From contig CABHOY010000052.1 of assembly GCA_902168105.1 (NCBI GenBank), forward strand, positions 987 to 64,986: a stretch of 64,000 nucleotides of DNA. The letters run 5' to 3'. The DNA comes from an uncultured Flavihumibacter sp. (lineage in GTDB: Bacteria > Bacteroidota > Bacteroidia > Chitinophagales > Chitinophagaceae). The notes beneath the pieces are model-generated. The model made no database searches and was not told the DNA's origin. It was given only the letters and a program-made list of their open reading frames with translations. The translations under genes and the position numbers were made by a program. This document shows positions 23,744 to 28,246 of this stretch, in pieces (the first letter of the stretch is position 1; the number at the start of each line of letters is the position of its first letter).

Positions 23744-26700
23744 CTAATTGGCTGGCTGGTCCTGCTTTACAGGTAGAATAATGTTAAACGTCGCGCCCTC
23801 TTTTTCCCGGCTATGGGCAGTGATCAGGCCATTATGTTTATCAATGATCTTCCGGGTGACGGCCAGACCGATGCCGGTACCTTCATATTGGTCTTTCGTA
23901 TGCAAACGCTGAAAGAGCACAAATATTTTATCCAGGTACTTTTCGTCAAAGCCTATCCCATTGTCTGTGATAGAGATACATACAAACGGGCCATCGGGAT
24001 CTGTCTCACTGCCAAACTTTTTCTCCTTCAGGCGTGTAGCGGTAATGTTTATAATGGGCTGGACCTCCTTGCCGGAAAACTTAAACGCATTGCTTAACAG
24101 GTTTTGGAACACCTGTCTTAACTGTCCGGGTACGGCTTCTATCGCCGGCATAGGGCTGACAGTAACTTTTGCGTTCTTTTCATGGATAAGTATTTCAAGA
24201 TCTGAGAGTATTTCCTTTATGATCACTTCCAGGTTCACCTGCTCAAAGAAACTGGCCTGTGATAGACGGGAGAACCGCAGCAGGTCATTGATCAGGTTCG
24301 TCATACGGGAAGAGGAATTAATAATGCGGGTCAGATAATCCACCGCCTTATCTTCCATGTTATCCTGATAACGTTCCTTCAGCATATTCCCGAACATATG
24401 GATCTTTCGGAGCGGTTCTTTCAGGTCGTGCGAGGCGACAAACGCATATTGCTGCAATTCGGCATTACTTGCTTCCAGCTCCTGGTTAGCCCTTTGCAAA
24501 GCAAGTGTGCGTTCCTGGATACGTTGCTCCATGATCTCCGCCGCCATCTTCTGCTCATTGATATCGGTACTGGTACCTACCAGCACACTGGACATGCCGT
24601 CCATATCCTTTTGCACCCGGGTCCTGTGCAGGAACCAGTCATATCTTCCTTCCAGATGCCTGATACGTAATTCCATTGCAAAGTCCAGCTTACCCTTTAC
24701 CGCATGCCGCCAGTTTTCTTCCCAACCCGCGATATCGTCCTTGTGGATCACACTCTGCCACCCTTCCTGTTGCAACTCGTGCAATGACTTGCCGGTATAC
24801 ATAATAAACTGCTCATTGACGAAGTTGACAATCCCTTTCGGGTCCGCCGTCCATAATATGAGCGGCATTGATTCTGCCAGAAAGCGTTTTTCCTCACGGT
24901 TCACGGCTGCCAGTTCCTCCGCATGACGCAGGGTTGTAACGTCCATCATAGACCCCAGCATACGGTAAGGTGTCGCATATTCATCAAGCATCAGGTAACC
25001 ACGGTCCAGTACATGCGCATAGGTGCCATCGGCACGGCGCAATCTGTACCCTTCCGACCACTGACTTTGTTTATTGTTCACAGCCCTTGTGATACTGTTC
25101 CTCACCCGCTCGCGGTCATCAGGATGGATGTTCTCCACCCAGAAAGTACGGCTTCCCGTTTCTTCTCCGGCATGACCATATACTGCGGTAAAGTTATCAC
25201 TCCACCAAACGGTATTCCTGGCAAGGTTCCAATCCCAGACAGTGTCGTTCGTAGCTTTGGACACCAGACGGAAACGTTCTTCGCTCATCGTCAGTTCCCG
25301 TGTTCTTTCCAGTACCTTATGTTCCAGGCCTACATTCAGATTGCGCAGGCTTTCCCTTGCCTGTACCAGTTCATTATAATTACGGCGCAGGCGGTCCTCT
25401 CCATCTTTCTTTTCACTCACATCTATACAGGTGATCACGAGATTACCATCCTGTGTTTTTACACCCAGCATCTCATACCAGTAATCCTGCTCCTTACGCG
25501 TTATATGGAACTCTGTGCGCAACACCGAGCCATGAGTAAACACCTGCGCATATTTTGCGAACAGCCCTTGCTCGAGCAATTCGGGGAAGGTCTGTCTGAT
25601 AGAAGGATGCTCTGCCAATACCACCTCTTTCCCCAGGAAACGCAGCCCTTCACTATTGGCTGCCAGCAACCTGAAATCGGTCATCGCACCTTCGTCATTG
25701 AACACCGGCTTCAATGCCAGTATCACATTCGTGCTGGCATTAAATACTCCCTTCAGCAACATGTCCAGCTCTTTGATAGCTGTAATATCCACAAAGGTGA
25801 TCACCACACCGTCAGTCTGTTTGTCCTGACGGATGTATGGCAGTACCTTCATCAGATACATATTGCCATTACTCAGCACCATCTCTTTCTCCAACGTCTT
25901 CTTATGACTGATCACCGAATGAATATCGTCGATCATGCTGTCCTGCTGGATATTTGTAGAAATATGATTGATAGGGCGTCCTATGTCTGAGGGTATCAGG
26001 TTGATCATGTTTACTGCAGCCGGATTGAACTTGCGGATCCGGAGGTTGGTATCAACAAATACCTGCCCGATGTCCGTACTACGGAAGTAGTTGTCCATAT
26101 CGTCATTCAGTTCCACCAATTCCTTGATCTTCAGCTGATGTTCAGTATTCAGGGTATGCAGTTCCTCATTCAGTGATTGCAGCTCCTCATTACTGGATTG
26201 CAGTTCCTCATTCGCAGAAAGTAATTCCTCATTACTGGACTGTAATTCCTCGTTAGAGGTTTCCAACCCTTCGATGGCCATCTGGAGATTGGTACGGGTT
26301 TCTCCCAGCTCCGCCTCCAGCGACATAATATGTTCCTTTACATCTGCCGGTTGATCATGTGTGTCGGGAGCGTCTCCGGGTATGATCACTTTATCAGGCT
26401 CCTCATTAAATACGATCATGGTGTACTGGCCATTACCGTTTCCGGTACCCGGTCTTATCAACAGGTTGACCAACCTTAACCCCGCCGGCGTATTCATTTT
26501 CACGCCTTTCACCATTGCTTTCTTTTCAGTAGCCCATGCCTGCCTCAACGCGATGTTCAGCGCCATAGACAGATCACCCGGCACCATCTTCAACAGGTTC
26601 AGGTGCAACTTCTTTTCCGGCAGTGAGAGATAGTTTTTATAACTGCCTATCGCTTCCTGGATCTCATATGCTTTATCAATATAAACGGCTGCAAAGCCAA

Positions 26701-28246
26701 AGTCTTCCGCCATCACATCCCGGAATTCTTCCAGGAGGTTATTCAATTTCTTATCTGCAAGACGGCTGTTACCGTTACTGCGCATTTCACGCGTCTGCCG
26801 GATATATTCCAGCGGACTGTAAAGATTGTCGGGCAGTGAACTACGTGTAGTATCTGTTTTCCGGTAGATCTTCCATTTCGAATGCACCTCTTCCAGTCCT
26901 GCACGTATCAGTGAAGCAGATTCACTGGGACCTAGAAAAAGGCATCCGCCGGTATTTAATGCAAAATGAAGGGACGACAATACCTGCCGTTGTAACACAT
27001 GCTCCATATATATGAGCATGTTGCGGCAGGTAACGAGATCGTTCTTTATAAAGGGAGGATCTTTTAAAATATTATGACGTGCAAATACGATCAGCTTCCG
27101 CAGGCGCGGCGCGATCTGGTATTTCTTCTCTTCTTTAAGAAAATACTTCTTCAGTAACAGCGGATCTATATCTTTCACAACACCTGAAGGATAGATACCC
27201 CTGGCCGCAAACTCAATCGCATTACTGTCTATATCAGTAGCAAAGATCTTCACATCCAGCCACTTGTTCTTTTCCTGTAAGCACTGGTCAATCAACATGG
27301 CCAGCGTATAGGCTTCCTCTCCCGTACTACAGGCGGTGACCCAGATCTTCAGAATAGCACCTTCCTCCTTCTCATCAACCAGCTTGCTGATCACATGGTC
27401 CTTCAAATACTGGAAGGCCGATTTATCCCTGAAAAAACGGGTTACGCCGATCAGGAAATCCTTCGCCAGCGCTTTACTTTCCTCTTCACTCTGCCGCAGC
27501 AATTGCAGATATTCTTCAAGGCTCTTTATATTGAACTGCGCCATCCGTTTGGCTATGCGCCGCGTAATGGTTGGAGGTTTGTAGTGGTTGAAATCCTGGC
27601 CGCTATGCTCCCTTACAAGCTGAAAGACCTCCGCAAGCATCTCTTCATCGATCTTCCCGTTAAACACCTGTACAGGCATGTCCTGGATGTAATTATATAT
27701 TTCCGCCGGCATAAATTCCGGTGCCAGTACATAGTCTACATTTTCAGTACCGATCAGGCTGCGGGGCATCCCGTCAAACTTAGCGGTTTCCGGGTCCTGC
27801 ACCATTACCATTCCACCTGCTTTTTTAATAGCGGCTGCGCCTCTTGTTCCATCAGTACCGGTACCCGAAAGGATGATACAGATGGCAGCGCTGCCTTTAT
27901 CTTTTGCAAGTGAAAAAAGGAAGGTATCAATAGCCGTATTAGGCGCCTTCTCGGTAGGTTTCTGTACCAACCGCAGACGTCCCTGCTCTATGATAATTTC
28001 TTTATTATTGGGAATAACGTATACGCAATCAATCTCCACTCCCATATCCTGCTCGACCTCCCTGACCTGCATATTAGTGTGCTTGGATACAAGCTCCACC
28101 AGCAAGCTTTTATAGTCGGGGGACAAGTGCTGAATAATGACAAAGGATAAATTGCCATATTCCGGCATATTATCAAAGAATTCATGGATGGCTTCCAGTC
28201 CACCCGCAGAGGCTCCTATCGCTACTATGTAGTTCGCTTTCTTCAT
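23744..28246 (-). CDS. CheB methylesterase-CheR methyltransferase-coiled coil-multi-PAS-histidine kinase fusion
   Basis: CheB triad intact (GASAGG, IIQHL, GTDG); CheR [35 protein letters not shown]; NEEL heptads; several PAS/PAC; H-box [10 protein letters not shown], N-box [13 protein letters not shown], DNGIG and GTGIGL. Confidence 0.93.
   Translation of the reverse strand: [1500 protein letters not shown]
26158..26262 (-). repeat. 21-nt coding tandem repeat giving five (S/A/L)NEEL heptads
   Basis: [35 protein letters not shown]; ttcctcatt/ttcctcgtt recurs every 21 nt. Confidence 0.85.

Follow-up and report, generated by a model that had tools for sequence, protein, structure and literature searches.

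Comparative evidence for a Glu-Glu heptad helix as the candidate methyl-acceptor of fused CheR and CheB in a multi-PAS histidine kinase of the Chitinophagaceae

The 64,000-nucleotide stretch of contig CABHOY010000052.1 (assembly GCA_902168105.1) analysed here, referred to as the window, comes from an uncultured Flavihumibacter sp. of the Chitinophagaceae and carries a gene for a 1500-residue sensor histidine kinase. In this kinase, CheB and CheR, which are textbook chemotaxis enzymes, are fused upstream of a long helix with five Glu-Glu heptads (the NEEL helix). Approximately half of the sampled Chitinophagaceae genomes encode CheR/CheB without any chemoreceptor, and the comparative data point to this short, nearly invariant helix as the substrate of the two enzymes. 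The NEEL helix is thus probably the methyl-acceptor of the fused CheR and CheB, which would make the kinase a self-adapting one. A sequence-only reading of the same DNA had proposed that the heptads form an internal methylation helix like that of methyl-accepting chemotaxis proteins (MCPs). The acceptor role contained in this proposal is supported circumstantially by comparative sequence tests, namely the obligate linkage to CheB-CheR, the conservation of exposed positions, the match of the family heptad to the methylation consensus, the absence of MCPs and the precedent of RsbM/RsbK, whereas the homology to MCPs is not. The gene and its parts are located as follows.

23744..28246, minus strand: whole gene, sensor kinase of 1500 residues with the order CheB-CheR-PAS-like-NEEL helix-PAS_10-PAS-PAS-HisKA-HATPase_c (single open reading frame (ORF); Pfam)
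27698..28225, minus strand: CheB_methylest domain, residues 8-183, without a receiver domain (Pfam E value 7e-52; alignment to PDB 3sft and 1chd)
26897..27637, minus strand: CheR_N (residues 204-253) and the CheR S-adenosylmethionine (SAM)-dependent methyltransferase domain (residues 268-450) (Pfam, CheR E value 8e-52; PDB alignment)
26402..26764, minus strand: PAS-like domain, approximately residues 495-615 (AlphaFold2 secondary structure and predicted local distance difference test (pLDDT) score; Foldseek)
26090..26341, minus strand: single unbroken alpha-helix of 84 residues, residues 636-719, with the heptads inside it (AlphaFold2, pLDDT about 78-84)
26153..26257, minus strand: five heptads S-N-E-E-L-Q-S, residues 664-698 (translation; Tandem Repeats Finder)
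25781..26098, minus strand: PAS_10, residues 717-822, directly after the helix (Pfam E value 6e-28)
23765..24439, minus strand: histidine kinase core, HisKA (residues 1270-1329) and HATPase_c (residues 1373-1494) (Pfam)

Regarding the linkage of the helix to CheB-CheR, a scan of species-representative genomes returned 80 loci, which span Bacteroidota, Cyanobacteria, Alpha-, Gamma- and Deltaproteobacteria/Myxococcota, Acidobacteriota, Chloroflexota, Planctomycetota, Spirochaetota, Bacillota and Thermotogaceae. Six of them, cut by contig ends, were left out of the spacing count. The other 74 loci come from at least 10 phyla and have 2 kb or more of DNA upstream; in every one of them, CheR is encoded 1.3 kb and CheB 1.9 kb ahead of the heptads, on the same strand. 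The NEEL helix followed by PAS_10 stands at a fixed distance after CheR, and the block CheB-CheR-PAS-like-NEEL helix-PAS_10 is found in at least 10 phyla. Among 150 representatives of 50%-identity clusters, 97 contain both CheB and CheR, 20 CheR only, one CheB only and 32 neither; the last two groups are mostly short proteins that start shortly ahead of the helix, and the 32 are probably truncated metagenome genes. In the 101 sampled Chitinophagaceae genomes, every CheR encoded in a large ORF has the heptad module 0.5-1.1 kb downstream. The segment of helix and PAS_10 (residues 600-830) matched 15,941 representative clusters (50% identity) at E <= 0.001, a number that is an upper bound on the family size because PAS_10 alone can explain the weaker matches.

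Within the protein, conservation is also highest in the heptad helix. The heptad stretch is nearly letter-perfect in 119 homologues that share only 51-60% identity over the surrounding 376 residues. A 21-residue segment (residues 679-699) shows 99.6% identity in 67 homologues, which are at most 62% and typically about 55% identical overall, and in the same comparison the conservation of the CheR core peaks at 85%. Mean conservation is 94% in the heptad helix and 60% in the protein's own pre-HisKA helix. In the 150 representatives, the consensus heptad is [S/A][T/S/A]-N-E-E-L-[Q/L], with N, E, E and L each at approximately 98-99% conservation in the central heptads. The heptad register read from the sequence is a = Asn, b = Glu, c = Glu, d = Leu, e = Gln and f/g = Ser/Ala/Thr, which leaves the Glu pairs exposed at b and c, with small residues at f and g. 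Conservation fixes every one of the seven positions, the exposed b, c, f and g among them, on which a plain coiled coil sets no constraint. The pairs 666/667, 673/674, 680/681, 687/688 and 694/695 are the candidate methyl-acceptor sites.

At the DNA level, Tandem Repeats Finder reported a 21-nucleotide period at 26147-26255 (scores 74-79), and the earlier statement that such a repeat encodes five Glu-Glu heptads holds for the residues and nucleotides listed above. A recent slippage or a chance repeat was rejected as its origin, because the five copies use different codons. Compared with 12 orthologous loci, on average 17 of the 32 helix codons differ synonymously and 0.7 non-synonymously; the many synonymous and few non-synonymous differences therefore indicate strong purifying selection rather than recent copying. 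In an AlphaFold2 model of residues 195-830 (77 homologues, mean pLDDT 83.6), the heptads lie in an accessible helix between two PAS domains, which corresponds to residues 442-525 of the modelled fragment. By Foldseek, the second half of the model resembles the PAS-helix-PAS proteins FixL, DosP, Brucella LOV-PAS-HK and PpsR.

The catalytic residues of both fused enzymes are intact, as the sequence-only reading had stated. In alignments with the CheB structures 1chd and 3sft from the PDB, Ser13 (GASAGG), His40 (IQHLSP) and Asp132 (GTGTDG) occupy the positions of the triad. The CheR motifs FFRD (271-274), ACSTGEE (305-311), ATDID (336-340) and CRNMLIY (407-413) align with the CheR structures 5ftw and 5xly and are invariant across 77 homologues. 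The CheR sequence can also be aligned to CheR 1af7 and has the two-domain CheR fold with SAM-binding and catalytic motifs. This fold was modelled confidently by AlphaFold2, with a Foldseek template modelling score of 0.82 to Bacillus subtilis CheR 5ftw, and a low-confidence flexible linker (approximately residues 472-497) joins CheR to the PAS-like domain. A receiver domain was found on the kinase CheB neither by Pfam nor from the ORF start; since the CheB domain begins with residue 8 and no upstream extension of the ORF is possible, CheB lacks this domain, in agreement with the earlier description.

The genome offers no chemoreceptor as a substrate for these enzymes. The sequence-only reading had found no MCP, CheA or CheW gene in the window and had proposed a genome check for MCP and cheA genes; in the 8.1-Mb genome (91 contigs, 97% complete), there were no matches for MCPsignal, CheW or H-kinase_dim (the CheA dimerisation domain), and its statement extends to the whole genome. 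Control genomes gave matches in the same domain searches. Because MCPsignal, CheW and the CheA dimerisation domain are absent, the substrate cannot be an MCP. Four true CheR domains and five CheB domains are present in this genome, which has its closest relatives in Chitinophaga. In the sampled Chitinophagaceae genomes, MCPsignal exceeded the Pfam cut-off in 0 of 101 and CheR in 46 of 101, and the query of helix plus PAS_10 (residues 600-830) matched in 29, a few of them through PAS_10 alone. As MCPsignal is absent while CheR is present, CheR/CheB of the Chitinophagaceae act on something other than chemoreceptors. It is unlikely that MCPs were missed through incomplete assembly, given the completeness of the genome and the lack of MCPsignal over the cut-off in the whole family sample.

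When the 8.1-Mb genome was scanned in six frames for [EQ]E[LIMV] motifs in heptad spacing, with three or more out of five required, only four ORFs were returned. All are kinases, three of them with CheR/CheB fused to them or next to them. Besides the kinase of the window, they include a paralogue at C13:3503-8087 (L095) with the order CheR-heptads (ATNEELQSANEELKSLNEELEVSQEEL)-PAS x3-HisKA-HATPase and a separate cheB of 198 residues just upstream; it is a split version of the CheB-CheR fusion. The third is a hybrid kinase at C30:271202-276036 (L093), CHASE3-GAF-'QQEELRQSNEELTRQSEILQASEEELRVQEEELRQVNDEM'-HisKA-HATPase-REC x2, with stand-alone cheR and cheB genes directly after it and then a REC-HisKA-HATPase protein. 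The fourth, at C26:107381-110977 (L094), is a CHASE3-GAF-Glu heptads-HisKA-HATPase-REC x3 kinase with no adjoining cheR or cheB. A stand-alone cheR-cheB pair is encoded at C55:302854-305857 (L096), convergent with a REC-PAS-kinase whose H-box region is close to that of the window kinase. This stand-alone pair may serve the C26 kinase in trans.

Methylation of a histidine kinase by a CheR-type enzyme is already known in trans. In Bacillus cereus, the target of the CheR-type enzyme RsbM is the hybrid kinase RsbK, whose methylation on the signalling helix represses sigma-B signalling (PMC4574943). RsbK has the architecture CHASE3-HAMP-GAF-S-helix-HK-REC, and 127 RsbK-like kinases have been reported in 10 phyla (PMC4574943). 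PhoP of Salmonella is also methylated by CheR (PMC8546571). The window kinase resembles RsbK/RsbM in having a CheR-type enzyme dedicated to a histidine kinase, here within the same polypeptide, and a candidate substrate helix within the kinase. Moreover, two other kinases of this genome, those of C30 and C26, have the RsbK-type architecture, and the C30 cluster, with cheR and cheB alongside, is RsbK/RsbM-like with an added esterase. The differences are that the enzymes are fused to the window kinase and include an esterase, whereas no dedicated esterase accompanies RsbM, which is an orphan. The candidate helix is flanked by two PAS domains and is distant from the phospho-acceptor domain, whereas the helix of RsbK lies directly before it. 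The window kinase also lacks CHASE3, HAMP, GAF and any REC domain at the C-terminus, and the methylation of its helix is a prediction.

As to chemoreceptors, the MCP methylation consensus is E-E-x-x-A-S/T, of which the second Glu is methylated, and three sites of Tsr are 7 residues apart (PMC1079850). The heptad of the family can be read as E-E-L-Q-[A/S]-[T/S/A]. Of the representatives, 58% have the strict motif EExxA[ST] in the helix, and the relaxed motif is found 3.5 times per protein; compared with the rest of the same proteins, the motif density in the helix is 450-fold (strict) and 80-fold (relaxed) higher. As in the methylation helices of Tar and Tsr, Glu pairs 7 residues apart occupy exposed heptad positions next to a core position; the x-x-small-Ser/Thr that follows them is present in the window kinase in the relaxed form only. 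In both cases a tether keeps the enzymes near the substrate, a pentapeptide in Escherichia coli and a covalent one in the kinase. In contrast to MCPs, the kinase lacks an MCPsignal domain and a hairpin four-helix bundle, and its genome encodes no CheA/CheW partner. The core position of its helix is Asn instead of a hydrophobic residue, and the helix has no encoded Gln sites. The kinase CheB also differs from canonical CheB, in which the triad is accompanied by a phosphorylatable N-terminal receiver domain. A homology of the helix to MCPs was rejected on the basis of the sequence and structure searches: there was no Pfam MCPsignal match, the MCPs in a PDB sequence search (2ch7) reached only non-significant E values of approximately 5, and AlphaFold2 predicted a single long helix instead of a hairpin. 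The resemblance is at the motif level only.

Pfam assigns the other PAS domains of the kinase to PAS_3 (residues 1013-1099) and PAS_4 (residues 1125-1233), gives no match for the PAS-like domain at approximately residues 495-615 and lists no CHASE3, GAF or REC domain among its matches to the protein. The NEEL helix is positioned 570 residues before HisKA. Homologues that are 75-95% identical occur in Chitinophaga spp. and are annotated as 'two-component system, chemotaxis family, CheB/CheR fusion protein'; close full-length homologues under this name in public sources, including P0006, P0008, P0016 and P0034, show 76-95% identity over residues 455-830. The database label 'CheB/CheR fusion protein' (JGI, NCBI) presumably corresponds to KEGG K13924. 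The kinase is an ordinary member of the CheB/CheR fusion family, with no structural difference from it, and is best explained as a soluble multi-PAS histidine kinase with its own adaptation machinery. This family is very large and has already been named and annotated; in the searchable literature only annotation labels were found for it, with no described function or substrate.

In the proposed mechanism, the receiver-less CheB and CheR would be tethered by the flexible linker to the PAS-like domain and the long helix behind it, where the five heptads would present solvent-exposed Glu-Glu pairs. CheR would use SAM to esterify the helix glutamates, in chemoreceptor fashion most likely the second one of each pair, and the resulting methyl esters would be hydrolysed by CheB. 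The covalent tether would do what the pentapeptide tether does in receptors. With up to ten charges per dimer neutralised, the Asn-cored, marginally stable coiled coil would pack differently, and this change would alter how the signal passes by way of PAS_10 and the PAS domains behind it to the kinase core. Methylation of the helix, within the protein or its dimer, would in this way tune the kinase output. As no receiver domain is present on CheB, the conformation of the substrate helix would supply the feedback, with one signalling state favouring methylation and the other favouring demethylation.

The kinase gene is part of an apparent four-gene operon on the minus strand, which consists of response regulator, heme oxygenase, phytochrome and kinase genes. 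The three genes before the kinase are the following.

30501..30950, minus strand: single-domain response regulator, first gene of the apparent operon (Pfam)
29846..30424, minus strand: heme oxygenase gene, bphO-like (Pfam)
28298..29821, minus strand: bacteriophytochrome photosensory core PAS_2-GAF-PHY, 507 residues, without an output domain (Pfam)

The gap between the phytochrome and kinase genes is 51 nucleotides. An output-less bphP lies directly upstream of the kinase gene in 10-11 other Bacteroidota loci, and three more loci have a phytochrome nearby. The pair of core-only bphP and cheBR-kinase, with a gap of 60-100 nucleotides, was seen in 10 other Bacteroidota genera (L013, L016, L018, L019, L020, L023, L026, L028, L030 and L033), and the same pair occurs in L017, where it is cut by the contig end. 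In Christiangramia (L088, 5015-10888), a CheB-CheR protein of 1220 residues is followed without a gap by an ORF of 736 residues matching phytochrome, and in Sporocytophaga (L024, 5084-10663), a phytochrome of 485 residues is encoded two genes downstream. Overall, a phytochrome is found near the CheB-CheR-heptad module in approximately 14 of the 80 loci and is missing from the neighbourhood of approximately 66. The suggestion of the sequence-only reading that CheB might be controlled by the phytochrome or the response regulator is therefore unsupported, and control by the conformation of the substrate helix would be the simpler expectation. That the operon forms a self-adapting light sensor, in which the phytochrome would hand red/far-red information to the kinase by contact and NEEL methylation would give integral feedback of the chemotaxis type (adaptation and memory) within an ordinary two-component pathway, can be put forward only tentatively.

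Explanations other than a methyl-acceptor have to be considered for the helix. The heptads could be only a structural coiled-coil linker or dimerisation zipper between the PAS domains, with CheR/CheB acting on other proteins such as the RsbK-type kinases. Long coiled-coil linkers are common in PAS-helix-PAS proteins, with FixL, DosP, LOV-PAS-HK and PpsR as the Foldseek matches; the genome contains two RsbK-type kinases with Glu-rich heptads, of which the C26 kinase has no adjoining cheR; and RsbK (PMC4574943) and PhoP (PMC8546571) are examples of non-receptor proteins methylated by CheR in trans. However, an ordinary linker conserves mainly its core, as the lower conservation of the pre-HisKA helix illustrates, whereas the exposed Glu-Glu and small-residue positions of the heptads are invariant across phyla. 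Furthermore, the helix is never apart from CheB-CheR in loci with enough flanking sequence, and a generic linker needs no such link. A purely structural role is therefore considered unlikely. Contact with the upstream output-less phytochrome, by which the acidic helix would pass on light information while the role of CheB-CheR would be unrelated, is suggested by the adjacent bphP and by the recurrence of the pairing in other Bacteroidota. Since most of the loci with the identical helix have no phytochrome nearby, the conservation of the helix is not explained by such a partner, and this explanation is highly improbable.

The helix might also be a docking or pseudo-substrate site, which, like the NWETF tether of E. 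coli receptors, would bind the active sites of CheR and/or CheB and keep them inactive or in position without being turned over. A consensus-like motif and strict co-occurrence with CheB-CheR fit binding as well as catalysis, and Gln is almost absent at the Glu sites, with no evidence of deamidation. On the other hand, where a match to the catalytic consensus stands beside intact catalytic centres, modification is expected; the external class of substrate, the MCPs, is absent from the genome; and five repeated sites exceed the need of a tether. Docking alone therefore has a low probability.

Several observations weigh against the NEEL helix as a methyl-acceptor. The window kinase itself contains the strict EExxA[ST] motif 0 times and the relaxed form three times (666, 673 and 680). 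Relative to the extended MCP consensus, [ASTG][ASTG]xx[EQ][EQ], the helix is out of step by one residue in the N-terminal half. The lack of significant similarity to MCPs mentioned above belongs here as well. Glu-to-Gln replacements are common at receptor methylation sites, whereas at the Glu sites of the helix they are very rare, approximately 1 in 150 per position. An alternation of E and Q as a signature of CheB deamidation was looked for across the representatives and was not found; because Gln is almost absent at these sites, there is no sign that CheB is used as a deamidase. The invariance of all seven heptad positions could reflect other partners. The helix is also far from the kinase core, at a distance of more than 550 residues. 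The AlphaFold2 model is a monomer with a predicted template modelling score of 0.51. Finally, no biochemical data on any member of the family were found in the searchable literature.

If the methyl-acceptor reading is true, methylation-based adaptation would not be special to chemoreceptor arrays and would be a common add-on of two-component kinases, in this case coupled to a phytochrome. More tentatively, thousands of CheB-CheR-NEEL proteins together with the RsbK-type kinases would then constitute a widespread, receptor-independent class of methylation-adapted histidine kinases. Such a mechanism would be a variation on receptor methylation by CheR/CheB and on RsbM/RsbK, and its new features would be the fusion of both enzymes to the kinase and the placement of the acceptor helix between PAS domains.

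Downstream of the kinase gene, positions 22850-23665 of the minus strand encode a probable lipoprotein of 271 residues, which shows weak, sub-threshold similarity to CsgG and FlgT_M.

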